Shown here: positions 1,073 through 18,593 of the stretch, one piece after another
Numbering within the stretch: position 1 is the stretch's first letter
Layout of the letters: every line of letters begins with the position of its first letter
Origin: a virus
Lineage: Duplodnaviria > Heunggongvirae > Uroviricota > Caudoviricetes
Length of the DNA stretch: 18,593 nt
IMG/VR virus record: IMGVR_UViG_2534681832_000034
Coordinates: 1-18,593 of that record
Reading direction: 5' to 3' (one strand)
Program-made: the position numbers and the translations under genes
The notes under the pieces: model-generated
What the model was told of the DNA's origin: nothing
Databases searched by the model: none
What the model saw: the letters and a program-made list of their open reading frames with translations, nothing else

Positions 1073-1111
1073 GAGCAGATCGTCCAACCCGATCTGGATC
1101 GGGTCAGAAAA

Positions 1112-1129: not shown

Positions 1130-1198
1130 CGTTTTCTAAGTGCAAAGAATCACCTTTTCGAGCTGGTGATTGAAGGTTGATGCAAATTTGGAGAAAAA

Positions 1199-1999: not shown

Positions 2000-2028
2000 C
2001 AGACGTAGTAAGAACCACCAGCATTGTA

Positions 2029-2873: not shown

Positions 2874-2923
2874 TAGATTGCTCTAATCTGGAGTCACCTG
2901 GCGTTTTCAGTTTGAGGTCGGAG

Positions 2924-3169: not shown

Positions 3170-3239
3170 TACAATCGTTGCGGGTGCTTGAGGCTATCTG
3201 CTTCAGGCATTACCCGAAAAGCAGATAGAAGAAAGCCCC

Positions 3240-3307
3240 AGATAACATTACGCGTCCTGCAAGACGCTTAACATTAATCTGAGGCCATATCTATGCTTAG
3301 CATACGT
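3240..3307 (-). ncRNA. sok: Predicted Sok-like antisense RNA covering the mok start region
   Basis: Minus-strand promoter: -35 TTGACC (plus 3337-3332), 18-bp spacer, -10 TAATCT (plus 3313-3308). The transcript would run antisense across the mok ATG (3293). A stem GCGTC/GACGC at about 3251-3266 is a candidate 3' structure. Ends are approximate. Confidence 0.45.
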
Positions 3308-3499
3308 AGATTAGCCTCTTACCGACCAAAAGGTCAAGGAGAAGCAGGCTATGAAGCAGCAAAAAGCGATGTTAATCGCTCTGATCGTCATCTGTTTAAC
3401 CGTCATTGTGACGGCACTGGTAACGAGGAAAGACCTCTGCGAGGTACGAATCCGAACCGGCCAGACGGAGGTCACTGTCTTCACAGCCTACGAATCTGA
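3293..3499 (+). CDS. mok: mok-like overlapping reading frame (translation-coupling ORF of the hok locus)
   Basis: ATG 3293; 68-codon ORF overlapping almost all of hok in another frame, as in hok/mok/sok loci. Confidence 0.5.
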   Translation: MLSIRRLASYRPKGQGEAGYEAAKSDVNRSDRHLFNRHCDGTGNEERPLRGTNPNRPDGGHCLHSLRI

Positions 3500-3506
3500 A
3501 AGGTAA
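3351..3506 (+). CDS. hok: Hok/Gef-family type I toxin, 51 aa
   Basis: Translation MKQQKAMLIALIVICLTVIVTALVTRKDLCEVRIRTGQTEVTVFTAYESER matches the Hok family pattern (LIVxCLT...LTRKxLCExRxRxG..EV.AF.AYES). AAGGAG precedes the ATG. The leader (GGTGCTTGAGGC..., TAGCCTCTTACCG, CAAGGAGAAG) resembles the R1 hok mRNA as I remember it. Confidence 0.8.
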   Translation: MKQQKAMLIALIVICLTVIVTALVTRKDLCEVRIRTGQTEVTVFTAYESER

Positions 3507-3577
3507 GAGACCTGGCGGGGAGAGATCTCCGCCACTCTTAGTGTGTCAGGTATCCTCAATGCACCCTTTCATCTCCA

Positions 3578-3606
3578 AATAAAAAAGCTCCCGAAGGAGC
3601 TTTAAA
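3578..3606. terminator. Bidirectional rho-independent terminator (end of minus-strand late operon; probable hok mRNA 3' end)
   Basis: Stem GCTCC (3587-3591), loop CGAA, GGAGC (3596-3600), flanked by A6 upstream and TTT downstream, so the minus-strand transcript ends hairpin + U6. Confidence 0.7.
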
Positions 3607-3622
3607 ATACAAGGGATGACTC

Positions 3623-4132
3623 TTAATCCCACTCAATCCAGTTGTAGACGATACGAAGTGACGGGCGCACAGCGGCAGTCACATCTTCGGTACTAAAGTC
3701 GATTGCATCACTGTAGATTTTGCAGTCCAACATTTCAATTGTTGTAGCAGCTTTTGTTACAGCGTTAACCCCGGAAGATTTGGATTCAGGGGTAGCAGCC
3801 ATCGTGATATCAACATAGTCCTTCGCCGCAATGCGATCCTTGATGAACTGAAGAATATCGCCTTCGATAGTCTCCACGCACTGGACCTGGATTTCCCCAG
3901 AGTTTCGAATTGGTCCGTGCTGGTTGAACTTCACACCATTCGGACCATAGTCCTCCACATCCTCGCGGGTCATTTCAGGAATTTGCGACGTGCGAACCAG
4001 TACGCTGATATCTTCATGGCCTGCAACAGTGAGCTGGAATTCAGAAGATACCAGTCGTTCGCCTTTGGCCGCGTTGGCAGTATAGCGGCCCTTAATAAAT
4101 TTACGGTTTCCCTTAGTGTTATTGTGCCCCAT
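3623..4132 (-). CDS. Late-operon structural/morphogenesis protein, 169 aa (function unassigned)
   Basis: ATG at 4132 (minus) with AAAGGA SD; TAA at 3623-3625; last gene before the terminator. Confidence 0.8.
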   Translation of the reverse strand: MGHNNTKGNRKFIKGRYTANAAKGERLVSSEFQLTVAGHEDISVLVRTSQIPEMTREDVEDYGPNGVKFNQHGPIRNSGEIQVQCVETIEGDILQFIKDRIAAKDYVDITMAATPESKSSGVNAVTKAATTIEMLDCKIYSDAIDFSTEDVTAAVRPSLRIVYNWIEWD

Positions 4133-4143
4133 ATAAAATCCTT

Positions 4144-4725
4144 TTACTGGAACGCCCGAACAATATCGGAGCTGTTATATATCGAAGAACCGGTCAACTG
4201 GAGGTTGACGGTGTTTTTCAGGAAATGCCCATTGCTGTCCCTGGGCGCATCGAGATCGAAACTTATGTCCTGGATAGCGACATCAATGATGTTGATCTGG
4301 CGACCAATGTTTAGCGTCACACGCTCCGGGATTCGACCACCAATACTGGCATCTTTAAGTTCCGGGCTAATCATCGCTGACAATGCGGCGATAGCTCCTG
4401 AAACCTCCGTGAATGGATCAAACAAAGCGATGAAAGTTACTGGCAGCGTGAAAGTTGGCGGTGTTCCCCCCTCCCAAACCATTAAGCTGTTCCAACGGGC
4501 CACCGACGTTGTTTCAGTACCAACCTGCGCAAAACCACTGAAGGCACCAGCAACAGACCCCATGGACATACCGGTAAACGGCGCTTCCCAATTCTGGGCC
4601 ATGTTCATTGCTGCCCCCTGGCTGATATATCCGGTAACCTGGTACTGAGAGTTCGTTAAAGTAACTTTCAGAAATGGCGATACACCGTCAGCCTGGCTGT
4701 AAACCCCATAAGGTATAGGTGCCAT
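4144..4725 (-). CDS. Late-operon structural/morphogenesis protein, 193 aa (function unassigned)
   Basis: ATG at 4725 (minus); Gly/Ala/Ser/Thr-rich composition typical of virion proteins; packed 11 nt upstream of the next gene. Confidence 0.8.
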   Translation of the reverse strand: MAPIPYGVYSQADGVSPFLKVTLTNSQYQVTGYISQGAAMNMAQNWEAPFTGMSMGSVAGAFSGFAQVGTETTSVARWNSLMVWEGGTPPTFTLPVTFIALFDPFTEVSGAIAALSAMISPELKDASIGGRIPERVTLNIGRQINIIDVAIQDISFDLDAPRDSNGHFLKNTVNLQLTGSSIYNSSDIVRAFQ

Positions 4726-4760
4726 TCAAGTTAAAGGCCGGAGTTCTCCGGCCTCCTCCT

Positions 4761-5576
4761 TTAGCCAAGGCGCTTACGGCGCAGTTTCATTGACTTTTTG
4801 CGGGCAAGTTTTGCCGCACCCGTCTGGGCTTTTCGACGCGCTTTTTTCAGCGCCGATTTTTGAGCCGCAGTCAGACGTTTTTTACGCAGGCGTTTACGGA
4901 TGAGTTTGATCTCACCGTTACGAACAACCTTCTTAAATGCTTCAGTCAGCATTTCATCAGAAGTGCCAGCAACAACAAACGCCGCTTCCAGTTCGTCACG
5001 GTCGTCGCTATCTAAACCAGCGATAGAGGCACCAACATCAGCAGCTGCGTCGTCGTCTTCATCGTCAGCCAGTGCTTCGATCAGGTCATCATCTACACCG
5101 CATGCTGCGAGGAAGTCAGCAACATTTGCCCATGCTTCGTTATAGGCATCGTCCTGTTCTTCTGTAACTTCGGAGTCGTCGTCATCAGAGATACCAGCGA
5201 TAGCCTGAACGAAACCATCAAGGGAGTCGAAAGTCAGATCACCGCTATCAGCCCAGGCGAAAACGGCGTCGGCCGCATCACTCAACGCATTCTGCATAGC
5301 ACTTCTATTTGCAGCTTCCAGAATCATCTGGTGCGCCTGTTCGACGGTCCATTCTTTACCGTCTTTCCCTTCCAGGATTTGCTCAGGAGCCGGGGCAGAT
5401 GGAACGTTATCGTTAGTCTGTGCCGCCGGTTCCGGATTATTATTAATAACCGGATCTGTTGGCTGTTCGGCGCTTGCTCGGGCAGACTCCATCAGCTGCA
5501 CAGGATCAGAGTTCAAAGCGAAACGAGACAGTCCATTCCCCAAAAATGCCCCGGATTGAAAAAAGTTTTTGCTCAT
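4761..5576 (-). CDS. Highly acidic protein with poly-basic C-terminal tail, 271 aa (possible scaffold or internal/DNA-associated virion protein)
   Basis: ATG at 5576 (minus) with AAGGGA SD; long Asp/Glu runs (DDDDSEVTEEQDD, DDEDDDAAAD) followed by a C-terminal ~50 aa rich in Lys/Arg. Confidence 0.8.
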   Translation of the reverse strand: MSKNFFQSGAFLGNGLSRFALNSDPVQLMESARASAEQPTDPVINNNPEPAAQTNDNVPSAPAPEQILEGKDGKEWTVEQAHQMILEAANRSAMQNALSDAADAVFAWADSGDLTFDSLDGFVQAIAGISDDDDSEVTEEQDDAYNEAWANVADFLAACGVDDDLIEALADDEDDDAAADVGASIAGLDSDDRDELEAAFVVAGTSDEMLTEAFKKVVRNGEIKLIRKRLRKKRLTAAQKSALKKARRKAQTGAAKLARKKSMKLRRKRLG

Positions 5577-5585
5577 TGTATTCCC

Positions 5586-7175
5586 TTACTTAATAAGCAG
5601 CGGTACGCCCTGGATACGACGGGCTACGCCAGTCGGGCAGCAGGCCCAGACTACTTCCCATTTATCGAATTCCGCCTGCGTAACTTTCAGCACATACGGT
5701 TCTGTACCGTCAGCATCAGGATCACGAGGAGCCACCAGAGCGCCGGAGGCGACAAAGCGATCTAAAAGTTTGGTCATCCCTTTAGTCAGGCCAGCCGCAG
5801 TAATACCGTCCGGGCTATGCTTCATCTGTCGGGCTAACTGGACAAAGAAACGGCTGATTGCATTCATCAGGGATGGGACGTGCTGGAAGTGCAGATAGTT
5901 ATCCTGCGTGCAGCAAGTTAAAGCATCGTCGATGATCATCTGGCCAGAGGTGCCAACAGATACTTTATTGAGACGGCCCTTGACCATTGCTTCTTCGTCC
6001 GGGGTATCTTCCGGATACAGCGGTTGAATTGACGCACGAGCAATGACGGCACGTTCTTCACCAGCCGGTGAGTAATGCCAACCGCCGACATCAGAGTTTT
6101 TCTTGACGCCACGAGCTTTCGCCGCATACGCCACGCCAGACAGACCAAAGACCACACGGGATTGGGTCCATTTGTCTTTGCAGGAGAACGGGTAGTGATA
6201 GACAGCACAGCTTACATAATCGGTACCAAGTAAACCGGTATCTTCAACAGCAGAGAGCGCTTCCGTATACGTCAATGTCGGTTTGACATCAAAGAAGCCA
6301 TCAATCAGGCGATCAGAACAGATATTACCTAACGCGGTGATCGCCGCATTGTCATAGCAACCCAGGCCGAGAACAGCGGTGTACATGTACGGCGCATTGT
6401 TCAGCACCTTAACCGCACGCAGGTACGCAGCGGTTGAGATTTTCGACTGATCACCGTTGGTACCACCAGTGAACGCCAGCGATTTTTTATTTGTTACTTT
6501 CGCCGTCGAAATCAGCTCTTCATTAACAACCGCGCGCAGATATTTAGAACGGGCTTCCAGAGCCGTAGGCAGATAACACAAGCGGCCCATGTCATCTTTC
6601 GCTTCTTCCGCCAAAGACACAGTGTGTGTCTCCAGGGTCGTTACCACGCCGAGCGAAGTCGTCTGGGTCAGTTTTAAGAGGAAGCGTTCATTACCCGCGC
6701 TGTCCGCTGTTGCCGTTTCGATGGTTAACTCACGGGTAGGTGAAATACACGGATCACCATCATCAACGTAGATAGCAAAGGCTTCGCCACTATCAAGTTC
6801 AATTTCAGAACCGTATGGCAACGCACTGTAAGCCGGTTCGCCTGATTCATCGAACATAATAATCGGGAACTTCGCATCATCCGGAACAGCACGAACAACA
6901 TAACCTGACGTTTGCTGAATAGCTTCGTATACATGGCGAATTGGTTCGAACTGTGAGCCGGAAGACGGCTTCAGCGGTTCGCCGAGAACATCTTTGTAAT
7001 TGGACTCAGTAACCGCAAGAACAGTAAACGGCTTGCCACGCGCAAATACGCCAATACCAGCCCACAAGCTGCTATTTAATGCAACACCGGTAGATAACGT
7101 CGAATCGGCATTGATCGGGCTAACCGCGACGCCGGATGCATTACCTAATGACTGTTGAATTGAATATTGAGACAT
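5586..7175 (-). CDS. Large late structural protein, 529 aa (possibly contractile-tail sheath; P1 gene-22-like by position)
   Basis: ATG at 7175 (minus) with AGGGAAAG SD; TAA 5586-5588; composition typical of virion structural proteins. The sheath assignment is a weak guess from position and a C-terminal ...GAL... segment. Confidence 0.8.
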   Translation of the reverse strand: MSQYSIQQSLGNASGVAVSPINADSTLSTGVALNSSLWAGIGVFARGKPFTVLAVTESNYKDVLGEPLKPSSGSQFEPIRHVYEAIQQTSGYVVRAVPDDAKFPIIMFDESGEPAYSALPYGSEIELDSGEAFAIYVDDGDPCISPTRELTIETATADSAGNERFLLKLTQTTSLGVVTTLETHTVSLAEEAKDDMGRLCYLPTALEARSKYLRAVVNEELISTAKVTNKKSLAFTGGTNGDQSKISTAAYLRAVKVLNNAPYMYTAVLGLGCYDNAAITALGNICSDRLIDGFFDVKPTLTYTEALSAVEDTGLLGTDYVSCAVYHYPFSCKDKWTQSRVVFGLSGVAYAAKARGVKKNSDVGGWHYSPAGEERAVIARASIQPLYPEDTPDEEAMVKGRLNKVSVGTSGQMIIDDALTCCTQDNYLHFQHVPSLMNAISRFFVQLARQMKHSPDGITAAGLTKGMTKLLDRFVASGALVAPRDPDADGTEPYVLKVTQAEFDKWEVVWACCPTGVARRIQGVPLLIK

Positions 7176-7190
7176 AACTTTCCCTGTTAT

Positions 7191-7209
7191 GCGCCCCGCA
7201 CGGGGGCGC
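7191..7209 (-). promoter_or_regulatory. GC-rich intercistronic stem-loop without U-tract
   Basis: GCGCCCCG / CGGGGGCGC inverted repeat between the stop of the 7236-8942 gene and the start at 7175. Confidence 0.5.
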
Positions 7210-7235
7210 TATGTTAAACGGAGAACTTCCCCTGA

Positions 7236-8942
7236 TTACTCAGAGTCACCGGCATCAATCGTGTCGCCGCTTATGAAGTTAAGCCCGCCTTTTTTGGCCA
7301 TTGTCAGCGTTACACGAGTGAAGTAATCAGCGCCGTTGCGTGGGTGCATATCGTTGATAGCCGAACCCCACAGTGTGGTACGGTTGACCAGCGCCGGAGT
7401 GGTCGGATGCTGGAACGGGATAGCCGGGACAGCATCACCAGTCACGAAGCCTGCTTTACCCGGATTTTCATCACGGACGTAGCACAGCACATCCATCGAG
7501 CTGAACTGAATGTTCTCTGTCGTTAAGTTCTTACAAATACCAGCAGGTACTTCGTACACTTTCACGTTACCGAACAGGGTACCGATGTAGTGAACATACG
7601 GAGTCTGGATATAGTCTTCGGCTGGCTGGAAGAAATCCTTCGGCAACTGTTTGAAGAAAGATGCTGCATCAGCACCAGCAAACATCCCCATCGCACCAGA
7701 AGATTTAACGCGCTCAATAATGTCGCGATATACAGTCTGGAATTTGCCACGAATGATGGTTGCCCATACATTAAAGGACTGGTTAACCGGCAGAGCGATG
7801 TCAAAGGTGTCGGTCGCAAGAGTACGCCAGATCATGATGCGAAGACGCAGCATATCCTGTTCATGAGACAGGTATTCCTTCAGGGTGCGGAACTGTAGGG
7901 AACCCAGGTCCAGACCAAATTCACGCTGTGCTTCATACGCCGCCTGTACCGTGTGCTCAGCCGCGATAACGAACTGACTTGGGAACAGGGTGTATTTCTT
8001 CATTTCGTGGTTGATCAGCGGGATCAGCTCAGGTGCGGCTTCAATATTGATTTCCGTCTCAATTGCGATCTCAGTGCCTTTATCCGGCGCTTTGGAGAAC
8101 GACAGGGCAATCTGACCAATGTTGTAGTTCAGAGAGCAGGTAACAGTGATTTGCTCACCAGCAGCATTAGTAAACGAGTGAAGTAGGCTGCCGGAACCGT
8201 TATCAACAACAGACTTAATACGGTTAACGTAGATGTTAGTGCGACCTTTTCGGATTGGTACATTCTGGCCTTCGAAGTCTTCCATCTTGAAGGTTGCGGT
8301 TTTGCTGGTGCCATCGGAGCTTGCCACCAGCACATAGCGGCGACGTAACTGGCTGTACACACCAACGGATTGCATGTCCAGAACATCACCAGCAGCATAA
8401 GAACCAAAAGAGGAACCTGCCACGTTAAAGACTTCATAGATGTCGGACTGGTCACGCGTAACCGGAATGAAGGTACACGCATCAGCGGTAGCTGCCCCCA
8501 ACTGAACAGGCAGGATCATCGCGAGGAATAAAGGCAGACGCATAACACCGTCAGAAACGCTCATCATCTCTGCTGCGACGGATTCCAGCATCGCTTTATT
8601 AGTGGCATCCATGCTATTGCGGGTGGACTCAATCAGGCAGTTTTCCAGCGTCTGGTGGCAGGAGGCCAGAATTTCCGGACGCGGCATAGATTTATGTGCT
8701 GCGGCGTAGTCAGCCAGTGCACTTGCCCACGCTGTAGCGATTTGAGCGGTGGCATTATCAGAGATACCCGCAAAAACCGGGTCTTTACGTGCAGCTTCAA
8801 GGATAGATGCGGCACGCGCGGCATCATCTTTAATGAATTGGTTATCAGTACCGAACTGCGCAGTGCTTGCCCAGCCAAGCACAGCTTTAGAGCGTTTTGC
8901 GATATCTGCAATACGATTCTGGTATTCGCGTAAGTTACTCAA
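7236..8942 (-). CDS. Probable major head (capsid) protein precursor with N-terminal helical delta-like region (P1 gene-23-like by position)
   Basis: First gene of the late operon, directly beside parB. Proposed start is TTG at 8942 (minus) with AAGGAAG SD at 6-nt spacing; the ORF track's start at 8963 is also TTG and has no SD. No in-frame ATG for about 90 codons. N-terminal ~140 aa is Ala-rich and helical, then a Gly/Ser/Thr-rich body. Confidence 0.7.
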   Translation of the reverse strand: MSNLREYQNRIADIAKRSKAVLGWASTAQFGTDNQFIKDDAARAASILEAARKDPVFAGISDNATAQIATAWASALADYAAAHKSMPRPEILASCHQTLENCLIESTRNSMDATNKAMLESVAAEMMSVSDGVMRLPLFLAMILPVQLGAATADACTFIPVTRDQSDIYEVFNVAGSSFGSYAAGDVLDMQSVGVYSQLRRRYVLVASSDGTSKTATFKMEDFEGQNVPIRKGRTNIYVNRIKSVVDNGSGSLLHSFTNAAGEQITVTCSLNYNIGQIALSFSKAPDKGTEIAIETEINIEAAPELIPLINHEMKKYTLFPSQFVIAAEHTVQAAYEAQREFGLDLGSLQFRTLKEYLSHEQDMLRLRIMIWRTLATDTFDIALPVNQSFNVWATIIRGKFQTVYRDIIERVKSSGAMGMFAGADAASFFKQLPKDFFQPAEDYIQTPYVHYIGTLFGNVKVYEVPAGICKNLTTENIQFSSMDVLCYVRDENPGKAGFVTGDAVPAIPFQHPTTPALVNRTTLWGSAINDMHPRNGADYFTRVTLTMAKKGGLNFISGDTIDAGDSE

Positions 8943-8993
8943 TTTACTCTTCCTTAAACACAAGGCACTTGTGTGAATCCCTTTTCGGAAGAG

Positions 8994-9022
8994 ATTTTAT
9001 TGAAAGTCACTTGTTGACTTTC
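8994..9022 (-). promoter_or_regulatory. Candidate phage late promoter: -10 TAAAAT plus upstream inverted repeat
   Basis: Minus-strand TAAAAT (plus 8999-8994); inverted repeat GAAAGTCA-N5-TGACTTTC at 9002-9022, centred about 25 bp upstream of the predicted transcription start; no -35 match. Confidence 0.4.
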
Positions 9023-9075
9023 TCGTGACAAGCAATTTTTTATTTTTTCGGGAGTAGGGGAGGAAGGTAAAATCC

Positions 9076-9162
9076 AAGGTGAAATCGTGGCGATTTCACC
9101 TTGAAATTTTAGATGGATTTACTTTAAAAACAGTAGGTTAATAGTGAAATTTGAATGGCGAA
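9076..9162. other. parS: parS partition site (P1-type centromere)
   Basis: Box A heptamers ATTTCAC/GTGAAAT at 9079-9085, 9093-9099 and 9144-9150; box B hexamers TCGCCA (as TGGCGA) at 9088-9093 and 9156-9161; AT-rich central segment consistent with an IHF site; immediately 3' of parB. Confidence 0.85.
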
Positions 9163-9165
9163 AGT

Positions 9166-10167
9166 TTAAGGCTTCGGCTTTTTATCGAGGCTCTTTCTAA
9201 GGATATGCCCAATCATCCTGTCGAGTTCTTCCTGTAGCTCTTTTGAAAGTCGATTAAACTCATAAGAAAATGCACGGCCTTTCACGCGCTTCCTTGCAAA
9301 GCGATCCTTGTCCTCAAATTTCCATAATTCAGTAACTACGGACTTATCTTTAGAACCTTTATCCGTGAGTAGTGAGGCTTCCTTTGTTATCAAGCGCAGG
9401 ATTTTATTTTTAACTTCATCTTCGGCCATTTCTTCAATGGATAAGATGTCGTTTATTTCCGGGGATATGTTTTGAATAAGCTGATCAAACTCTAAATTCT
9501 TGTTCCCCATTTCGTCGCCAACAGCACAAAGCGTTTTGTAGTCCGAAAAGGTTAATTCCGACTGCACAGGGAAAAGGGCGACTAATTCTTCCGGAGCACT
9601 CGCTGCCTGGAGAGCACGCGTGACCTTAGCCTGAGACAGCCCTTCTTTGGCTGCAATATCCTTCTGACTCATCCCATCATTTTTCATTCGCATCAAACGC
9701 AGACCTATTTCTCGAATGCTGTGCTGCAATGCTGTCTGAACGTCTTTCGCTAAATTTTGCGCTTCCTGAACGCTGATCTCCTGGTCCGTGACTAAAACCC
9801 GCAACCCTACGTTCTCTAAGATGGCAGAAGCTCGACGCCGGGAACCATCCAAAATTTCAATTTTCCCTGTACCCCGTCTAACACCTATTGCAGGGTAAAA
9901 TTGCTGATGCTTAATAGTGCTTCGGATACTTTTTAATGATTTTGGCGTAAGAGATGCCTGGTCACGCCCGTTGTTATGCTGATCAACAAAGGTATCGCTT
10001 TCTACCTGGTTCGGAGGTATTACCTCTTCAATAAATGTGGCCTGGCGACCAGTTGATAACTTGAATACCTGCTCGACTCGATCGCCAGAGGCTGAAGAAC
10101 TATCAAATCCGCTTAATATTGAAGGATTAAGGGTTCGCCCAATTGTTGGTCTGTTTTTCTTTGACAT
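9166..10167 (-). CDS. parB: Partition protein ParB, 333 aa
   Basis: ATG at 10167; the length and sequence (MSKKNRPTIGRTLNPSILSG...) match my recollection of P1 ParB; parS lies directly downstream. Confidence 0.95.
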   Translation of the reverse strand: MSKKNRPTIGRTLNPSILSGFDSSSASGDRVEQVFKLSTGRQATFIEEVIPPNQVESDTFVDQHNNGRDQASLTPKSLKSIRSTIKHQQFYPAIGVRRGTGKIEILDGSRRRASAILENVGLRVLVTDQEISVQEAQNLAKDVQTALQHSIREIGLRLMRMKNDGMSQKDIAAKEGLSQAKVTRALQAASAPEELVALFPVQSELTFSDYKTLCAVGDEMGNKNLEFDQLIQNISPEINDILSIEEMAEDEVKNKILRLITKEASLLTDKGSKDKSVVTELWKFEDKDRFARKRVKGRAFSYEFNRLSKELQEELDRMIGHILRKSLDKKPKP

Positions 10168-10183
10168 GGGGGTTTCTTACTCC

Positions 10184-11380
10184 TCAGTTAGATCTGATAA
10201 ATTCAATACGGTCAAAAACTGCTTTAGCAAAATCTTCCGCGGCAATTCGCGCGTTCTTCAATGCATCAGCACTACCAACATACGTTGCCGGGTTAGCTGA
10301 AATAACAGTGTCAAAAGACTCGCCGCAACGTTCAAAACCGTCAAGGCGAGGGAGGACGACATCGAGCATATCCCCACCGAACACTTCTTTAGCCAGGCTA
10401 TGGCAATACTTATGATCTGCCTTGTTACTCAACTTGGACATAAAACCAATGTTAGTCGCAAGCTGGCACTCGCAGCCTTCATCCGAAATGAGTTTCACCA
10501 ACTCAGGAAGGCGGGCAACGTATTTAAGCGATGAGTGGAAATCGACAGTTGCTGGCGGCAGAGGTGTAAACAGTATATTGGCCGAGGCCAAAGCATTTTT
10601 CAGGAAGGCGTCAAGGTGAGGACCACTATCAACGAGGATAAAGTCATAATCGCTCTTCAGCTTATCAATCACATTTTCTTTCAGGACAGCATGGATGTTC
10701 TGACCCGGTAGATGCTCATTGCACAGCTCTCTCCAATCGGATGCAATAAAGGCATCGTCAATCGACGCAGGCATAACGTCAACCCCAGGTACAACAGAAG
10801 GAACAATAAACTCCTCTAACAGCTCTTCACGGCTTACATTCTGCAACATAGCCTGTGCAGATGTTGCGTTTACGATACCAATAGAGTGTTTATGGCTTAA
10901 AAACATCGTTGCTGAAGATTGCGGATCAAGGTCAATAACCAGAATCCTTAAATCTTCCATCAGAAGATGAGGGTGAGCACGCATTGCATGCGCCAGAGAA
11001 ACCGTCGATACAGTTTTTGACACACCGCCTTTAAGATTGGAGATGAAAATCACATACGCTTCGCTGTAGCGATCCCGGTATTTTGGCACTCCGCGATGTT
11101 CATATATGTCAATGATGTTCTGAATTGACATCGCATATTTCATTGAAGAGCCAGCAGGGCGTTTATCGAAAACATAACCCTTTTCTTCCATTTCACTTAC
11201 GGCATAGTCAACGTTCGCTCGAGTCAGTAGAGGCAATTTTGCCAGTGCCGCTTTCGCATAGACCTGGTAAAACTCGTTCGCGTGTAGCTCATCCTTTTGC
11301 AACTGTACTTGTTCAGTCAGAACATTGAGCATTCTGTTTGCTCTTTGAGCAACCTTGTGAAGCTGGCTGGAATCACTCAT
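10184..11380 (-). CDS. parA: Partition ATPase ParA (type Ia, N-terminal DNA-binding extension), 398 aa
   Basis: ATG at 11380 with AAGGATGA SD; deviant Walker A NLKGGVSKT; 398 aa as remembered for P1 ParA. Confidence 0.95.
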   Translation of the reverse strand: MSDSSQLHKVAQRANRMLNVLTEQVQLQKDELHANEFYQVYAKAALAKLPLLTRANVDYAVSEMEEKGYVFDKRPAGSSMKYAMSIQNIIDIYEHRGVPKYRDRYSEAYVIFISNLKGGVSKTVSTVSLAHAMRAHPHLLMEDLRILVIDLDPQSSATMFLSHKHSIGIVNATSAQAMLQNVSREELLEEFIVPSVVPGVDVMPASIDDAFIASDWRELCNEHLPGQNIHAVLKENVIDKLKSDYDFILVDSGPHLDAFLKNALASANILFTPLPPATVDFHSSLKYVARLPELVKLISDEGCECQLATNIGFMSKLSNKADHKYCHSLAKEVFGGDMLDVVLPRLDGFERCGESFDTVISANPATYVGSADALKNARIAAEDFAKAVFDRIEFIRSN

Positions 11381-11500
11381 CGAAAGTCATCCTTTATGCT
11401 GTATTTTTGAATTTAATTAAAAATGCTGCATAAAATAATAATGTATGCGTAGATGCTTGTACATGGCATTCTCTGCATGTTTTGTTCATTTTGCACGATT
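11381..11500 (-). promoter_or_regulatory. par operon promoter/operator region
   Basis: AT-rich region upstream of parA with an imperfect inverted repeat (AAAAATGCTGCAT ... CTGCATGTTTTG), compatible with a ParA autoregulatory operator. Confidence 0.45.
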
Positions 11501-11520
11501 GAGAGTTACAAGAAAGGCAC

Positions 11521-11541
11521 AAAAAAGCCCCGTTCAGGGGC
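11521..11541 (-). terminator. Rho-independent terminator
   Basis: Minus-strand stem GCCCC / GGGGC (loop TGAAC) followed by T6 (plus A6 at 11521-11526), 8 nt after the stop at 11549. Confidence 0.7.
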
Positions 11542-11548
11542 ATCAGTG

Positions 11549-11953
11549 TTATTTGCTAAGAGCAGCGAATAATCGTTCGAAATCGATAGTATCTATAGCA
11601 CGCGTAAGCGCCGGAAGTTCAGCCTCAAAGTACCCGTGTCGATCGTAAAAGAAGGGACCGAAGAGCGAGGCATGTTGGATTCTACTTCGCCCCAGCCCGG
11701 ACACACAGTTAAGCCCATTACCGGCTAAAAGGCTAAAAAACTTCTCTGGATTATCGTGGTAAAGCTGAGAATCAATGGTGGCGGTTAACTCTTCCATAGG
11801 GAAGCACACCCGCCCTGTCTCCCAGGGATATTTAGTCCGAAGCATAAACATTGCTTTCAGCAATTCACATTGAGCGCGGATCGCGTCCGGTTCATAGCCA
11901 GATATGGAGACATAAGCCACGTCCCTCATTCCTGCGTCATCTTTGAAAGTCAC
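11549..11953 (-). CDS. C-terminal portion of the amber-split gene (annotated alone it is a 134-aa ORF with a poor start)
   Basis: No convincing SD at GTG 11953 or ATG 11929; in the same frame as the upstream ORF and separated from it by one TAG; terminator directly after its stop. Confidence 0.5.
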   Translation of the reverse strand: MTFKDDAGMRDVAYVSISGYEPDAIRAQCELLKAMFMLRTKYPWETGRVCFPMEELTATIDSQLYHDNPEKFFSLLAGNGLNCVSGLGRSRIQHASLFGPFFYDRHGYFEAELPALTRAIDTIDFERLFAALSK

Positions 11954-12022
11954 GATAGAAGTAACATCCAGTTCTTTTTCGAAAGAGCGAGCAGCATCTA
12001 CTGGACGCTGAAGTAAATCATT

Positions 12023-12358
12023 CTACTTAATGCGCTCGAGAATCCCTCCCCACATATCATTTAGATATTCGATATGAGCCAAAACCTTATCAAGACACTC
12101 TCGTGTAAACCATTCAGTATGCCCGCCACCGGCGCTTTTCTCCCACGGCGCATTCCAGGGGAAAAAGGTTGCGTGTAAAGCCCGCTCAAGATTAACCATT
12201 GCCAAACGCGTACCACGATAGACCCGTGAAAGCGCAAAATCGGGACTCACTTGTAGCCCTTTAAACCGTGCCAATGGACCACATGAAATGCCGATTTTAA
12301 AAGTATCTCCGTTCTCCGGCACCAGAACGTAGAGGTAGTGTTGTTTCTCTTCTTGCAT
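12023..12358 (-). CDS. GIY-YIG / T5orf172-like domain protein, 111 aa as annotated (ends at an in-frame amber)
   Basis: ATG at 12358; motif HYLYVLVPENGDTFKIGISCGPLARFKGL resembles the GIY-YIG/T5orf172 core; stop is TAG at 12023-12025. Confidence 0.6.
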   Translation of the reverse strand: MQEEKQHYLYVLVPENGDTFKIGISCGPLARFKGLQVSPDFALSRVYRGTRLAMVNLERALHATFFPWNAPWEKSAGGGHTEWFTRECLDKVLAHIEYLNDMWGGILERIK

Positions 12359-12393
12359 ATCAATACCACTGCTTGATGAGAACCGCGCAAATG

Positions 12394-12649
12394 TTGACTA
12401 TGCGCGAAAGTTAATGTGAATAGTTGACTATGCGCGATGTGACTACAGTCAAAAGTTGACTGTAGTCGATTTAACTCCACCAAAGATCGACTATGTAAGA
12501 TATTGTCGGGAGAAACGTTGACTATACGCGATGAAATGACCCTAAAAGCCATCTCAATAGCGACTTGCAGAATATTGACGCCAGCAAAAATCCACCAGCG
12601 TCAACGAATGTCGCCTATAGTCAACTTCTCGCTATCGCATATAGTCAAT
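12394..12649. repeat. incA: incA-like iteron array (about 9-10 RepA-binding repeats, mixed orientation)
   Basis: Repeats of core TTGACTRTRCGCGA and its reverse complement (e.g. 12394-12407, 12424-12437, 12441-12452, 12456-12469, 12518-12531, 12613-12625, 12637-12649), immediately 3' of repA. Confidence 0.8.
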
Positions 12650-12650
12650 A

Positions 12651-13535
12651 TTATGGATTGCGCTTATGGATCTGAAAGCCGATTTTCCTGCCGTTTTTTA
12701 TCTCTGAAAATTTAAGATATTCAATAGCTTCCAAATCTTTCATGGCTTTTCTGATAACGCTATTTTGCACGCTAACGGATGATTTGAGATTAAGCCTTGC
12801 TCTAAGGCGCTCAATGCTGACAGGTGCCGGGTTGGCGGGTAGAGCCTCAAAGAATGTATACAGTACCTTGGCCGTCTCTTTGCGCCCGAGCTTATCCAGC
12901 ATCTTCAGCTTCAGGATTCGCTTATAGTCAACATAGTAAAGTTCAGATAGCTGTTTCTGCGGCTGGATCTCGATAACATCAAGCTCGGTATTCAGGCTGC
13001 TATATGCCAACAAGTTGACGTTAATGTTATTGAGATGACCTTTTGCCGCCGGGAAGCGGAATTTGACAACTGTCTGCTGAATGCGTGTCAGAGAGTCATC
13101 AATACTTTTACGGAACGCCTTTGAAAGGCGCTTACGTGGATAGCCGCATCGATCGGCAAACTCGGAGAATGGCAGGGTGATTATGCCGTCATCATCAGGT
13201 GCGTAGTCAAACAACGCGGAGGTTATGCCCACCCACACCTTAAAATCAGTATCCATATCCAGGCGTGGACCATGAATTTCAATTCCCTCATAGCCTTCCT
13301 GCTCAACAATTTTGAGGCTTGATAGTTCTTCGGTTGCGTTCGTTGTGTTTGTAGTAACTGACGATCCGCGACGTAGTGCCACATTGGTAGATTTTAAGGT
13401 TGGCACAAACACACCTAAGCGCAACAAAGCAATGGGTTGTATAGTGCTATTGTTATTGGGTTTCAGGCTGTGGATTTCTCCTGTATTTCCTGCAACTTCT
13501 TCAACGCTAAGGAAGCCTTTATTTTCTTCCAGCAT
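12651..13535 (-). CDS. repA: Iteron-binding plasmid replication initiator RepA, 294 aa
   Basis: ATG at 13535 with GGAG SD (GGAGAAACCACG-ATG); the ORF track's 13592 start is a TTG lying inside the origin region. Flanked by iteron arrays on both sides. Confidence 0.85.
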   Translation of the reverse strand: MLEENKGFLSVEEVAGNTGEIHSLKPNNNSTIQPIALLRLGVFVPTLKSTNVALRRGSSVTTNTTNATEELSSLKIVEQEGYEGIEIHGPRLDMDTDFKVWVGITSALFDYAPDDDGIITLPFSEFADRCGYPRKRLSKAFRKSIDDSLTRIQQTVVKFRFPAAKGHLNNINVNLLAYSSLNTELDVIEIQPQKQLSELYYVDYKRILKLKMLDKLGRKETAKVLYTFFEALPANPAPVSIERLRARLNLKSSVSVQNSVIRKAMKDLEAIEYLKFSEIKNGRKIGFQIHKRNP

Positions 13536-13582
13536 CGTGGTTTCTCCATATGTGGCGCGGCCTGGCGTCATCTGGATTGCAG

Positions 13583-13826
13583 TTATCAACAACTGTGAAT
13601 AGTCAGGCTCTAAAATCGCGTACAGTCAATGTTTCTGTCGCATATAGTCAACAATAAATCGCGTGCAGTCAACAATAAATCGTGCACAGTCAACATAAAA
13701 TCGCGTATAGTCAATGTTGATCCCATTTCAGGCCAGAAATGGCGCGGCTTACAGCGATCCGGGATCTTCTTTGGATCTTCCTGGGTTCTCTTTAGGATCT
13801 GTTTATTGGATCTATGCTGTGGATAA
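13583..13826. promoter_or_regulatory. Plasmid replication origin: DnaA boxes + iterons + GATC cluster
   Basis: DnaA-box-like TTATCAACA (13583-13591); perfect DnaA box TGTGGATAA (13818-13826); six GATC sites between 13719 and 13812. Confidence 0.75.
13613..13714. repeat. Origin iterons (incC-like): five direct repeats at ~21-bp phasing
   Basis: AAATCGCGTACAGTCAA (13613-13629), CTGTCGCATATAGTCAA, AAATCGCGTGCAGTCAA, AAATCGTGCACAGTCAA, AAATCGCGTATAGTCAA (13698-13714), all in one orientation directly upstream of repA. Confidence 0.85.
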
Positions 13827-13834
13827 GTTGAATA

Positions 13835-13855
13835 AACCGGCCAACATAGCCGGTT
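13835..13855 (-). terminator. Hairpin after the 13869-14261 gene (weak terminator candidate)
   Basis: AACCGGC / GCCGGTT stem with 7-nt loop; the downstream minus-strand sequence is only moderately T-rich. Confidence 0.3.
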
Positions 13856-13868
13856 GGAAGGAAGGGTA

Positions 13869-14261
13869 TTATTCTACGCTTTCGATAAGAAGACCATGTT
13901 CATAACATTTAAGCTCATCGCCTTCGTACAGGAATTGGTATCCAATACCACCATTTTCATGGACATTAGGGAATAACTCATAACTCACTGAAGAGCAAAT
14001 CACACCAATGCAGCGATCAACGCCTTCTCGTTCTTCAGTGCTGAAAAAATCCTCTTCGGTAAGAACATGAGTACATTGCTCATCAGCATAGGTCGGAAAT
14101 ACATGCTCGATGCAATCCGGGTGTTTTAAACCAAGCTGATCGGCAAGCTCGAAAGCATGACGGTATTGTTCAGATCCTGGCTTGCCAACAGTGATGTGCT
14201 CAATTTTGTAGATTGAAGTCGCTTTGTTGATAGTTTGCTTTACTGTTACTTTATCAGACAT
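13869..14261 (-). CDS. Hypothetical protein, 130 aa
   Basis: ATG at 14261 with AAAGGGA SD; stop 13869-13871; 11 nt downstream of the lipoprotein gene. Confidence 0.75.
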   Translation of the reverse strand: MSDKVTVKQTINKATSIYKIEHITVGKPGSEQYRHAFELADQLGLKHPDCIEHVFPTYADEQCTHVLTEEDFFSTEEREGVDRCIGVICSSVSYELFPNVHENGGIGYQFLYEGDELKCYEHGLLIESVE

Positions 14262-14272
14262 AAAAATCCCTT

Positions 14273-14605
14273 TTAGTTACCGCTGATAGCGCGGTTGTAA
14301 TCATTAACGTTGCGATTCTTCCTGTTAATCCCCATCAGCATCGTTTCTGTATCGAGGATATACGCTGGCAGATCATCAAAATATTCACTGCTAAACTCTG
14401 GCATCCTGCACATAAACGCACTTTTGGGGGCAGGGTGGTTAACCTTTGTCGGCGTCGGCGTTAAATTCGCTGATCGACTCCCGGAGCAACCGCTGAGTGT
14501 CAGCAGGAATGCGCTGGCGAACATTACCCGCCGCAACCAGTTGTTTCTGAACTTCAGCTTTTCGTTCCATTTGCCTGTCAGCATATTTGGCTTGTTCTGA
14601 TTCAT
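14273..14605 (-). CDS. Lipoprotein (signal peptidase II lipobox LTLSG-C), start codon ambiguous
   Basis: Lipobox L-T-L-S-G-C with Ser at +2 and a Pro/Thr-rich mature region (TPTPTKVNHPAPK). ATG 14605 has AGGAAG SD; alternative starts at 14584 and 14524. The 5' 167 bp overlap the upstream gene in another frame. Confidence 0.7.
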   Translation of the reverse strand: MNQNKPNMLTGKWNEKLKFRNNWLRRVMFASAFLLTLSGCSGSRSANLTPTPTKVNHPAPKSAFMCRMPEFSSEYFDDLPAYILDTETMLMGINRKNRNVNDYNRAISGN

Positions 14606-14861
14606 TTTTCACTTCCTGGCTGTGAAAATGTTGCTCTGCTTTGTTCATCGTCTCAATGGTCTGGTTAAGATCCATTATTGACTTATCACGTTCCTTAACA
14701 GCCTGATCAAGACTGCCAATTTTCTCCATGGCTTGCTTTAGCTGATGACGTTCCCATGCAAACCCAGCACCAACAAGTGCGCAAATCAGAACAAGAACAC
14801 CAGTAGCAGCAAGTTTCTCCTTCAAAGACAAAGCTGTTTTTAACGTAGAAAAGAATGACAT
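14439..14861 (-). CDS. N-terminally membrane-anchored coiled-coil (periplasmic) protein, 140 aa
   Basis: ATG at 14861 with AGGAGG SD (the ORF track's 14888 start is TTG); one hydrophobic segment (LAATGVLVLICALVGAGFAW) then a charged helical region. Confidence 0.75.
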   Translation of the reverse strand: MSFFSTLKTALSLKEKLAATGVLVLICALVGAGFAWERHQLKQAMEKIGSLDQAVKERDKSIMDLNQTIETMNKAEQHFHSQEVKNESEQAKYADRQMERKAEVQKQLVAAGNVRQRIPADTQRLLRESISEFNADADKG

Positions 14862-15082
14862 GTCTTCCTCCTGAAGAAAAATTATCAATGAAGTCCTTTG
14901 TTACCGTGCCGCTTTGTTTAATTCATCAAGAACAGAATCAGGAACCAAAGCGGCGACTACGCTGGCTGTGCTGGCCTTATTTGCTGATGCTTCCGCAAGC
15001 GCGGTACCGATAGCATGGTTATAAGCAGTGAACCGCCCCGGAAATCCTGGAGACTAAACTCCCTGAGAAAGAGGTAAACAGG

Positions 15083-15409
15083 ATGACTAAAAATACTCGT
15101 TTTTCCCCCGAAGTCCGTCAGCGGGCGATTCGTATGGTTCTGGAAAGTCAGGATGAATATGACTCACAGTGGGCGGCAATTTGTTCCATTGCCCCAAAGA
15201 TTGGCTGTACGCCGGAGACTCTGCGTGTCTGGGTTCGCCAGCATGAGCGGGATACCGGGGGCGGTGATGGTGGGCTCACCAGCGCTGAACGTCAGCGTCT
15301 GAAAGAGCTGGAACGTGAAAATCGTGAACTGCGCCGCAGTAACGATATCCTTCGCCAGGCTTCCGCTTATTTTGCGAAGGCGGAGTTCGACCGCCTCTGG
15401 AAAAAATGA
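15083..15409 (+). CDS. IS3-family transposase OrfA (HTH, leucine-zipper)
   Basis: ATG 15083; [21 protein letters not shown]... typical IS3-family OrfA; ends in the A-run frameshift window. Confidence 0.9.
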
Positions 15410-16296
15410 TGCCACTGCTGGATAAGCTGCGTGAGCAGTACGGGGTCGGACCGGTATGCAGCGAACTGCATATTGCCCCGTCAACGTATTACCATTGTCA
15501 GCAACAGCGACATCATCCGGATAAACGCAGTGCCCGTGCGCAGCACGACGACTGGCTGAAGAGAGAGATACAGCGCGTATACGATGAAAATCATCAGGTG
15601 TACGGTGTGCGTAAAGTCTGGCGTCAGTTGTTACGGGAAGGAATCAGGGTGGCCAGATGTACAGTGGCACGTCTCATGGCGGTTATGGGACTTGCCGGTG
15701 TTCTCCGGGGTAAAAAGGTCCGTACGACCATCAGCCGGAAAGCCGTTGCCGCAGGCGACCGCGTAAACCGTCAGTTCGTGGCAGAACGACCTGACCAGCT
15801 GTGGGTGGCTGATTTTACTTACGTCAGCACATGGCAGGGCTTCGTCTATGTGGCGTTTATCATTGATGTGTTTGCCGGATACATCGTGGGGTGGCGGGTC
15901 TCATCGTCTATGGAAACGACATTCGTGCTGGATGCGCTGGAGCAGGCGTTGTGGGCCCGTCGTCCGTCTGGCACCATCCATCACAGCGATAAAGGCTCTC
16001 AGTATGTGTCACTGGCCTATACGGAGCGACTAAAAGAAGCCGGATTACTGGCATCAACAGGGAGTACAGGCGACTCGTATGACAACGCGATGGCTGAGAG
16101 CATCAATGGTCTTTACAAAGCGGAGGTAATACACCGTAAGAGCTGGAAAAACCGTGCAGAAGTGGAACTGGCCACACTAACGTGGGTGGACTGGTATAAC
16201 AATCGACGATTGCTGGGAAGGCTGGGCCATACTCCTCCGGCAGAAGCAGAAAAAGCTTATTATGCTTCCATCGGAAACGATGATCTGGCAGCCTGA
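15406..16296 (+). CDS. IS3-family transposase OrfB (DDE catalytic domain), expressed as OrfAB by -1 frameshift
   Basis: DDE-type motifs ([23 protein letters not shown]); -1 overlap with orfA at A-AAA-AAT-G (15400-15409). Confidence 0.9.
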
Positions 16297-17010
16297 GTTC
16301 ACAGATAAAACACTCTCCAGGAAACCCGGGGCGGTTCACAGTTATGGCTACGTTGGCGCTTTCATTCGCTCGTTCATACTGCTGTTGTAACGCAGTTGTG
16401 GGTGCTGTTGTCTGGTTGAAAACAACCCCAAACTGTTCAGTTGCTACTTTCAGAGATTCAATTTGCTCTTCTGTTAGTGCTGGTGGGGGAGTGGCAGTGC
16501 CGCCGCCTGAACCAGAGCCTGACGAGCTTTCTGAGCCAGTGTTAAGGGCCTGGTTAATCTCCCCCATTGCAGCGACTAAACTTGATGTATTAAGCGCGTT
16601 AACAGCGTCCTCAAGCGATTTAGTAATATTCACATCACCAATGGCAATAGAGATCGGCAGTTCTGAAACTTCTCGCTCATTAGCACGGCAGTAAACATCC
16701 CAACCAATATCGAGTTGAAGCAGCATTGACAGATCTGCATAACCAGCCAACAGGTCCGCGTGCTTAGTTGCCAGTTCTCCAATGTTCGTTAAGCCGGTTG
16801 TGGTTGTTCTGATCGTTGAAACATAGCTGGTAATAGTGTCGGGATAGACAATTGTATCCAGAATTAATCCGGTCAATTCTTCTGCAAGCAGTTTTGCTGT
16901 GTTAGCACTGTTTCGTGCCGATGTTATGGCACCAGGTGTTTTCATCCCACCGGCGGCGGCCAATTTTTTATATGCGGATAACTGGTAGTCTTTTTCCAGC
17001 ATGATATCTC

Positions 17011-17295
17011 CTAACTTACCTGAACCAGGCCGTCTCCGGACGCTACGGTAGATCCGCATGAAACAGGGTCACCAACGCATACGATCCCTTTACCATTGAC
17101 GGTAAACCATGCCCTGGTTGATATAGCTTGCCCACCGTGCGTACTGTTTCCATCGGTATGCTGTGCATATTGCTTACCATCAACTAACACTTCGACTCCG
17201 TTGACTTTAAGTAGTGGTTCACTCTCTACAGGAGGCCTGGATGGGAATCCTCCGTGCCCCGAACAAATGCTGTCTTTTGTTGCAATGCTTGCCAC
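17011..17295 (-). CDS. PAAR-like (spike-tip type) small protein, 94 aa, GTG start
   Basis: Motifs CSGHGG, STHGGQ and GDPVSCG in a ~95-aa Gly/Val-rich protein resemble PAAR-repeat proteins. No in-frame ATG, so GTG 17295 is the likely start. Stop TAG overlaps the SD of the downstream gene. Confidence 0.55.
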   Translation of the reverse strand: MASIATKDSICSGHGGFPSRPPVESEPLLKVNGVEVLVDGKQYAQHTDGNSTHGGQAISTRAWFTVNGKGIVCVGDPVSCGSTVASGDGLVQVS

Positions 17296-17376
17296 GCCAT
17301 CACCAATTATTTGCTCTGATTTTCGTTATTTTAACTTAGGTTATTTGTGGTCTGTATGGCGTTTACTTATCGCAAA

Positions 17377-17393
17377 ATTGCTCTAATAAATAT
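17377..17393 (+). promoter_or_regulatory. P1 C1-repressor operator-like site upstream of the 17465 operon
   Basis: ATTGCTCTAATAAATAT matches the remembered C1 operator consensus at 16 of 17 positions. Confidence 0.6.
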
Positions 17394-17464
17394 TGTTTTT
17401 TATGTCGTATTTTCGGTACCATTCAGCCATCGCCCTTCAATGGGCATTTGTTTGGAGTCGTCAG

Positions 17465-17749
17465 ATGCAGATGGAGCTAATAAGCCGCAAAGAGTTCGAT
17501 AGCCGTGTAACCAGCGGTGAACTCGACAACTTGCAGGCTATCAAGGTGAAAGAAGGCTTTTGCCTCATTGGGAATCAGAGCGGAATAAATCGCGTTTTTA
17601 TGCTTCGCCGTACGGATTTGAAGCCATTTGTCTGGAAGAACGAAATTGGTCCCAGCTCATACGCTCAAACGAGGGGGTGCCACAACCTGGCCTTTTTCTA
17701 CAAAGACGAGCTTTCTGTGGTTGATATTCAAGGGTTACAACATGTTTAA
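17465..17749 (+). CDS. Hypothetical protein, 94 aa, translationally coupled to the rdgC homologue
   Basis: ATG 17465 with GGAG at 7-nt spacing (the track's 17393 start is TTG within the operator); stop TAA 17747-17749 overlaps the next ATG (ATGTTTAA). Confidence 0.7.
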
Positions 17750-18152
17750 GCACTGGAAAAACATTACTATTTATAAACTTTCTCGTGAGGCGGATCTGAC
17801 CGACTTAGAAGATAAAAAGAAAATGATCCTTTTCACGCCATGCGGTAGTCAGGATATGGCCAAGTTCGGTTTTGTATCGCCATTTGGTGATAATTCTGAA
17901 GTTATCGCTATGCATGGAAATGGTTTTATCCTTGTTGAAGCAAAGCGCGAAACAAAAATTCTTCCCCCGCCGGTTATCCAGCGAGCTATTCAAGAAAAAA
18001 TTGAAAAACTTGAGCAAGAACAAGCGCGTAAACTGAAGAAAACAGAGAAGGACTCCCTGAAAGACGAAGTTCTGCATTCTCTTCTGCCACGGGCTTTTTC
18101 AAAGTTTTCTGTTATCCAGGCGATCTACGACGGTTCATCGATAGGAATTTAA
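17742..18152 (+). pseudogene. rdgC: RdgC-homologue (recombination-associated protein), truncated to 136 aa by mobile-element insertion
   Basis: [16 protein letters not shown]...[13 protein letters not shown]...[52 protein letters not shown] closely parallels the N-terminal ~130 aa of E. coli RdgC (~300 aa); similarity stops at about 18131-18136 and a stop follows 5 codons later. Confidence 0.7.
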
Positions 18153-18593
18153 ATCCCAAAAAGATTAAAAAACACCCAAAAACGGATGTTTATTCAACAC
18201 TGCCTGCGTGCCATGAGTGCACCGCCGTCAATTAAATGGATCTTATCGATTGATACTGCATATCACTGATGGTTTTTTACCCCATTCCCCTGAAAATGGA
18301 CGCAACTTCTCCGATGCGGCTCTCAGCCGCACACCCGCTGTTGCGCCAGTGGCTCATGCATCAGGACCAGCTCTGTCAGACGGTAGCCCCGCTTCAGCCC
18401 CGTAAAACGCATCTGACCTCCGCACAGGATGCACTTCAGCGGGTCAACCTTCAGTAACCGCTGATACATCCCTCTCCACCTGATTTGCATCGCCGTCTTT
18501 CTCACCGTCTCCGTTATGACGTACACAACATCTTCCAGTAACCGGCGCTTCACCGGACTCAGGAAACCGTAGTACCTCACCATACGGAACCCC
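18137..18593 (-). mobile_element. End of an IS91-family (rolling-circle, HUH Y2 transposase) element, partial; continues beyond window
   Basis: Junction lies immediately 3' of GTTC (18133-18136), the tetranucleotide IS91-family elements insert beside; no terminal inverted repeat; transposase 3' end reads toward the junction. Confidence 0.5.
18323..18593 (-). CDS. IS91-family transposase, C-terminal fragment (N-terminus outside window)
   Basis: ORF open to the window edge; ...VRYYGFLSPVKRR... and a CxxCGG motif resemble the IS91/ISCR transposase C-terminus as I remember it; TGA at 18323-18325. Confidence 0.5.
   Translation of the reverse strand, partial: GFRMVRYYGFLSPVKRRLLEDVVYVITETVRKTAMQIRWRGMYQRLLKVDPLKCILCGGQMRFTGLKRGYRLTELVLMHEPLAQQRVCG

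Follow-up and report, generated by a model that had tools for sequence, protein, structure and literature searches.

A p0111-type replicon in the probable place of the P1 replication module, beside P1-type partition genes, in a P1-like phage-plasmid

Introduction

P1-like phage-plasmids carry replicons of either the IncY or the p0111 type, and this split is well published; the p0111 replicon is already known and common. IncY and p0111 account for 31 and 24 of 55 P1-like phage-plasmids in one study (PMC9603915), for 52 and 63 of 119 in another (PMC10879196), and for 94 and 132 in Salmonella (PMC11165635). The p0111 type has been defined from plasmid pO111_2 and contrasted with IncY (PMC9603915, PMC11165635), with AP010962 named as its PlasmidFinder reference (PMC11165635). 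At the protein level, the RepA of phage-plasmid SJ46 is 42% identical to P1 RepA (PMC5241659), and the IncY and p0111 types “can theoretically be compatible” (PMC11165635). For the P1 oriR, two arrays of DnaA boxes are described in a passage of a review (PMC4980987).

Our literature search found no experimental test of IncY/p0111 compatibility and no paper that deals with the iterons of p0111, with binding by its RepA, or with a requirement for Dam or DnaA. The fine structure of the p0111 origin, with its bipartite iteron, six-iteron control array and exact cassette boundaries, appears to be undescribed. A single DnaA box suffices for the P1 origin according to the title of a 1990 paper by Abeles et al., which that review lists among its references (PMC4980987). 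AP010962 is presumably the same record as NC_013370.

Here, we analyze a stretch of 18,593 nucleotides (IMG/VR record IMGVR_UViG_2534681832_000034, positions 1 to 18,593), hereafter the window, in which an initial annotation had placed a P1-like origin at 13583-13826. This origin is very probably the plasmid-prophage oriR of a P1-like phage-plasmid in which a p0111 replicon replaces the P1 module and P1 partition is unchanged.

Results

The P1 reference was NC_005856, in which iterons, Dam sites and the DnaA site carry curated annotation. Window positions 6169-11482, spanning gp22, gp23, parS, parB, parA and the par promoter, are 98.9% identical to it by blastn, and the match then breaks. The partition features in this stretch are:

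9079..9161, minus strand: parS (incB) centromere, P1 type, aligned with the annotated P1 parS
9166..10167, minus strand: parB, P1 type, about 99% nucleotide identity to canonical P1
10184..11380, minus strand: parA, P1 type, about 99% nucleotide identity to canonical P1

To the initial annotation all three had looked P1-type, and the alignments agree. The par region is 99.3% identical to K02380; P7 is absent from the matches, and P7 par forms a group separate from P1 par. Within parS, every box A and box B (the ParB boxes) is identical to P1, and the five differences fall in the IHF site (two) and between sites (three).

Two database observations touch on this assignment. Record OP279344.1, labelled ‘Escherichia phage P1’, carries P7-type parAB (98.9% to AF503408; L002, 2300-4650) together with an IncY replicon. 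The par of the window is only about 65% identical to that of OP279344.1, which could be taken to mean that it is not P1's; we rejected this because that record has P7-type par. Separately, ParA and ParB of RCS47 and SJ46 have been called identical to P7 and distant from P1 (PMC5241659). Contrary to that description, the par DNA of both is 99.1-99.2% identical to the P1-type par of the window.

Beyond the par promoter, the similarity to P1 gives way to a replication cassette:

~11483..13834, no strand: replication cassette of about 2.35 kb replacing P1 incA-repA-oriR; the P1 equivalent is NC_005856 61316 to ~62929
13841..13857, minus strand: terminator-like hairpin after upfA, right edge of the cassette, where high P1 identity resumes

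The left edge lies just past the par promoter, and between the two edges lie the control iterons, repA and the complete oriR. From 11483 to 13731 there is no DNA-level match to canonical P1 save a 59-bp stretch, and blastn to P1 restarts at 13732, 16-17 bp past the last iteron in both elements. Taken at face value, this restart would suggest a crossover at 13732 and hence a hybrid origin, of which the iteron half and repA were imported and the GATC/DnaA half is P1's own DNA. The identity profile led us to reject that crossover: identity to P1 is 62-72% across 13715-13834 and jumps to 90-100% only at 13835. The same GATC half also goes with a related replicon in a D6-like element that lacks the P1 flank, and we regard a hybrid origin as very unlikely. 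With P1 identity so low up to 13834 and so high beyond, the GATC/DnaA half appears to have diverged like the rest of the cassette, and its resemblance to P1's is best ascribed to shared ancestry of the replicons and the same host factors, not to retained P1 DNA. The homology breaks at 11483 and ~13834 thus point to replacement of the whole module, and show the unit of exchange to be a complete incA-repA-oriR module.

The origin itself consists of the following elements:

13583..13591, plus strand: repA-proximal DnaA-box-like site TTATCAACA, one mismatch to the consensus, position conserved in relatives
13611-13631, 13633-13653, 13654-13674, 13675-13695 and 13696-13716, plus strand: five origin iterons, direct repeats found by repeat finder and position weight matrix (PWM); the iteron sequence read on the repA strand is TTGACTRYRCGCGATTT
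13717..13755, no strand: G+C-rich spacer, 54% GC, holding the GATC at 13719, the block GCCAGA..TGGCGCGGC and a 10-nt near-palindrome
13756..13812, no strand: GATC-heptamer region, five sites in (G/T)GGATCT-like repeats, aligned with P1 Dam methylation sites 1-5
13818..13826, minus strand: distal DnaA box, perfect TTATCCACA, aligned with the annotated DnaA binding site of P1 oriR

The range given in the initial annotation is accurate, running from box to box, and the components that it named (helically phased iterons, a GATC cluster and flanking DnaA boxes) are all present. With phased iterons, GATC heptamers, a G+C-rich spacer, flanking DnaA boxes and an adjoining repA, the window has a P1-type oriR layout, and both the element order and the iteron spacing equal those of the curated P1 annotation.

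The five iterons (13611-13716) are spaced 22, 21, 21 and 21 bp from start to start, that is, by two helical turns. The 17-mer that the initial annotation had offered as the iteron core, AAATCGCGTRYAGTCAA, occurs exactly in three copies and with two mismatches in one; the second copy, TGTCGCATATAGTCAA, has four mismatches to it and a degenerate left half, and was recovered by the repeat finder and the PWM (25.7 bits). Allowing up to three mismatches, the 17-mer has ten matches in the window against 0.12 expected, a number reached in none of 200 shuffles. Outside 13583-13826 lie six of the ten: one falls within repA, at 12915, and the other five belong to a second array (12424-12648). The PWM, built from the five origin copies, scores these at 25.7-32.1 bits, against a shuffle maximum of 17 bits. 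The iteron consensus is TCG-N5-YAGTCAAY, in which TCG and AGTCAA are invariant in all eleven copies of the origin and control array and the centre is variable; such a two-part motif would suit recognition by an initiator monomer with two domains. Two weaker PWM matches were seen elsewhere: the iteron-like site AGGATTCGCTTATAGTCAACA at 12913-12933 inside repA (12.8 bits) is within the shuffled range (maximum 17) and may be due to chance, and a match at 11483-11503 (8.1 bits), also below the 17-bit shuffle maximum, is possibly chance.

Given the P1 par and phage genes next to it and an architecture and spacing that are the same, the locus could be read as the classical P1/P7 (IncY) oriR, the initial annotation having been mistaken in describing the repeats as not P1's. 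The sequences argue strongly against this. P1 and P7 iterons are of the GATGTGTGCTGGAGGGAAA type and share nothing with TTGACTRYRCGCGATTT, so that the p0111 iterons (TCG-N5-YAGTCAAY) and those of P1 have no sequence in common. The alignment of RepA and iterons with P1, in which identity would have refuted the initial annotation, gave 41% amino-acid identity over the full length of RepA, no P1-sequence iterons and, across 11483-13731, no DNA match save 59 bp, and there was no megablast match. In the opposite direction, a search with P1 rep brings up P1, P7 and a few more phage records of IncY type, and not one p0111-type record. The IncY reading is almost certainly wrong, and the pairing of P1-type partition with a different RepA specificity, which the initial annotation had raised as a possibility, is what the comparison supports.

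The GATC sites start at 13719, 13756, 13763, 13774, 13796 and 13809. These six sites in 94 bp form the densest cluster of the window, and none of 1000 first-order Markov simulations reaches six GATC per 100 bp. One site is shifted relative to P1, in that GGGATCT of P1 is GGGTTCT in the window and GGACCT of P1 is GGATCT. By analogy, 13756-13812 is presumed to be a Dam-methylated, SeqA-sequestered unwinding region. The TGGCGCGGC block of the spacer is common to the origins of P1, p0111 and the RepA 85% relative described below (L004). The near-palindrome at 13723-13742, with 10-nt arms (CCATTTCAGG / CCAGAAATGG), sits between the iterons and the GATC heptamers and may be a chance occurrence; RCS47 has one compensatory A:T to G:C change in it, and pairing is weaker in other variants.

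By count, DnaA boxes are not above chance, with seven matches of at most one mismatch in the window against four expected. Their positions are conserved: both are occupied in all six aligned p0111-type origins, including a relative with diverged flanks. The distal box is invariant in the six, and the proximal box is a perfect TTATCCACA in L004.

The remainder of the cassette lies on the other side of the proximal DnaA box:

12651..13535, minus strand: repA (repA'), 294 aa, initiator of the P1 RepA / RepFIB family, with GGAG 8 nt upstream of the ATG
12392..12650, four on the minus and two on the plus strand: incA-like control array of six iterons, PWM 14.6-22.7 bits
12392, 12422, 12454 and 12516, minus strand: control iterons, spacing 30, 32 and 62
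12606 and 12630, plus strand: control iterons abutting the repA stop codon, from the PWM scan
11549..12358, minus strand: T5orf172-domain ORF, 269 aa, cassette cargo gene, Pfam T5orf172 E = 6e-7

In Pfam, the RepA scores 27.3 bits for Rep3_C (cut-off 21.1) and 22.0 bits for Rep3_N, which is 0.4 under the cut-off of 22.4, and P1 RepA gives much the same Rep3 result. An NCBIfam search returned no match for either protein, and a PDB sequence search with the RepA of the window returned nothing significant. An AlphaFold model based on 20 homologues (mean pLDDT 75.7) has as its best solved folds RctB domains 2-3, F RepE, R6K pi, pPS10 RepA WH1 and TrfA, at a probability of 0.92-1.00. TM-scores to solved initiators are low globally (0.2-0.36) and reach 0.58-0.62 for single domains. 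The model predicts an iteron-binding initiator of the Rep_3 type, with two winged-helix domains (WH1-WH2).

The control iterons nearest repA are oriented like the origin copies and the distal ones are inverted. A sigma-70 consensus scan found no promoter on the repA strand within the iterons; TTGACT occurs in each iteron on that strand, without a good -10 element at the right distance. The one candidate repA promoter seen on manual inspection is weak, pairing TTGACT (13672-13667) with GACTAT (13649-13644). As the consensus scan found no repA promoter, autorepression by RepA is proposed here purely by analogy.

Homologues of the RepA fall into a tight cluster at ≥99% identity (the p0111 group), a few at 85-94%, Proteus and Providencia proteins at 53%, and thousands of RepFIB-type proteins at 44-49%. 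The RepFIB-type homologues are thus the most numerous, and several GenBank records name the p0111 protein ‘RepFIB replication protein A’, as would fit an IncFIB (RepFIB) replicon of F-type or virulence plasmids that the phage-plasmid had acquired. E. coli RepFIB proteins are, however, only about 47% identical, which is about as distant as P1 RepA (41%). None of the homologues lies between 60% and 80%, and those above 80% belong only to p0111-type or D6-like phage-plasmid replicons; the initiator superfamily is the same and the specificity group different. We consider acquisition of a RepFIB replicon highly improbable. Naming is uneven in GenBank, where the p0111 rep protein appears variously as RepFIB RepA, RepB family and ‘replication helicase’.

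We compared the region upstream of repA in five elements: P1, the window, L004 (RepA 85%), a Proteus plasmid (L007, 53%) and L009 (49%). Common to all of them are a DnaA box, a GATC cluster and a spacer, together with five repeats 21-22 bp long, and the repeat sequence differs in each. A DnaA-type box between the repeats and repA is found in the window, P1, L004 and L009, and none was identified there in the Proteus plasmid. Conservation across the six p0111-type origins extends to the TCG and AGTCAA cores of the iterons, to five GATC sites and to the positions of both DnaA boxes, and the iteron centre changes from CGCGTR in p0111 to CGCACA in L004. Since the iteron sequence differs wherever RepA differs, specific binding of the iterons by RepA is supported, as far as sequence comparison can show. 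The same pattern supports a division of labour in which the iteron half would carry plasmid-specific recognition and the GATC/DnaA half recognition by host factors.

Two of these relatives merit a separate remark. L004 (3630-4885; a contig of GCA_013513435.1) comes from an E. coli phage-plasmid about 90 kb in size, and the genes that flank the replicon match phage D6 at 81%. L009 (3700-4000) is an E. coli contig with a tail-spike (Peptidase_S74) gene, a RepA at 49% and the same origin layout; GATC lies within its iterons, GATCTACTGTATGCTAC, so methylation might affect their binding.

Replicon typing, which the initial annotation had suggested, places the window, by identity to the reference sequence, in the p0111 type, contrasted with IncY: positions 12600-13900 (1301 bp, including all of repA) are 100% identical to the reference record of that type, E. 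coli O111:H- plasmid pO111_2 (NC_013370.1). At least seven other E. coli plasmids are also 100% identical over these 1301 bp, and phage-plasmids Ro157c2YLVW, SJ46, JL22 and RCS47 are 97-99.5% identical. In PLSDB, 376 plasmids match 12600-13900 over most of its length. Among 5,426 complete E. coli genomes, 414 carry the 281-bp origin; of the 419 places where it occurs, 411 are on plasmids, and among the matches listed it carries no annotated feature in RefSeq E. coli records. MOB-suite typing in PLSDB gives pO111_2 (L001) a single replicon label, ‘IncHI1B’, where PlasmidFinder-based papers call it p0111. The par and rep modules clearly assort independently: P1 joins P1 par to IncY, P7 and OP279344 join P7 par to IncY, and the window joins P1 par to p0111.

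The cargo gene of the cassette is damaged. In the window and in pO111_2 the T5orf172 gene is interrupted by an amber codon (12023-12025); RCS47, in which the gene is intact, differs by the one change of TCG to TAG. This decay would fit a dead relic, or repeats that are an operator or regulatory array, in an element that replicates from elsewhere. Against that, diverged copies keep the iteron cores, GATC sites and DnaA box invariant, repA is intact, and hundreds of plasmids of about 90-100 kb carry the module. The lytic replicon of P1, repL, has no role in plasmid maintenance. A relic or purely regulatory array is hardly credible, and we retain the view that the p0111 replicon serves as the plasmid-prophage origin.

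Two further observations concern neighbouring genes. The pO111_2 ORFs annotated ‘GIY-YIG nuclease family’ and ‘hypothetical’ are the halves of one T5orf172-domain gene. At 15030-16338, the window carries a 1,309-bp IS3-family insertion (orfA 108 aa, orfB 296 aa) that neither pO111_2 nor P1 has. Projected onto P1, its site is inside the upfB homologue; the alignments on either side share 4 bp, as would fit a short target duplication.

Discussion

The p0111 replicon is homologous to the P1 incA-repA-oriR module, though diverged from it, and its mode of action can be proposed by analogy with P1. RepA monomers would bind the five phased iterons and, because these are two helical turns apart, would lie on one face of the DNA. 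Together with host DnaA on the flanking boxes, RepA may then open the adjacent GATC-heptamer region, which would fire only when Dam-methylated and, hemimethylated after replication, would be sequestered by SeqA. RepA on the origin iterons is also likely to repress repA, and the six downstream iterons may titrate RepA and pair with the origin iterons (handcuffing), which would keep the copy number low.

The initial annotation had expected incompatibility grouping to be affected, and this is upheld for one of the two mechanisms. Replication incompatibility (incA/incC) with P1 and P7 should be absent, since neither the iterons nor RepA match. Partition incompatibility (incB) with true P1 is predicted to remain, since parS, with boxes identical to those of P1, and ParA and ParB are P1's. 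This second prediction leans on established knowledge of partition incompatibility. Because P1 parS is retained, predictions of compatibility made from rep typing alone may be incomplete. Tentatively, then, the contribution of this locus may be a p0111 element that is incB-incompatible with true P1 and fully compatible with elements carrying P7 par, together with an origin anatomy not described before and a D6-like relative suggestive of exchange.

The scientific weight of the replicon as such is small, given that standard typing databases already include the type and that papers have repeatedly described how it alternates with IncY. On the practical side, exact coordinates are now available for marking the origin, its iterons and the control array in hundreds of plasmid records that are blank there at present, and the cassette boundaries define what is exchanged.

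Among known systems, pO111_2, RCS47, SJ46 and JL22 have the same replicon as the window. For pO111_2 the likeness extends to 8.4 kb of surrounding DNA (99.96% identical) and to the gene order parS-parB-parA-(T5orf172 gene)-iterons-repA-oriR-upfA, the difference being that pO111_2 is without the IS3-family insertion at 15030-16338. The RepFIB replicons of IncF and virulence plasmids share the initiator superfamily (RepA about 47% identical) but, judged on the initiator proteins, form a clade distinct from p0111.

The closest relatives outside p0111 are the D6-like phage-plasmids (NZ_CP085065.1, L004), with a RepA at 85%, 77% nucleotide identity over ori and repA, an identical ori layout, and the same GATC heptamers and DnaA boxes. 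They differ in their iteron centres (AAATCGCACATAGTCAA) and in the position of the replicon, which adjoins pmgB/transglycosylase genes and not par and upfA. The presence of a related replicon with variant iterons at another genomic position suggests cassette exchange between D6-like elements and P1-like phage-plasmids.

P1 itself shares the full order of oriR: DnaA box, five GATC heptamers, G+C-rich spacer, five iterons at 22/21/21/21 bp, DnaA box and repA, the spacing in the window being that of P1 iterons 10-14. In DNA sequence the GATC/DnaA halves agree at about 70%, RepA is homologous, and both elements have a control iteron array in two orientations beyond repA, that of the window resembling P1 incA iterons 1-9 in orientation pattern and in their spacing of about 31 bp. 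The differences are in the 19-bp, GATGTGTGCTGGAGGGAAA-like iterons of P1 as against TTGACTRYRCGCGATTT on the repA strand of the window, in the number of control iterons (nine in P1, six in the window), in the distal DnaA boxes (two in tandem in P1, one strong box in the window), in the extra T5orf172-domain gene that the window has between the control iterons and parA, and in the PlasmidFinder type, which is IncY for P1 and p0111 for the window.
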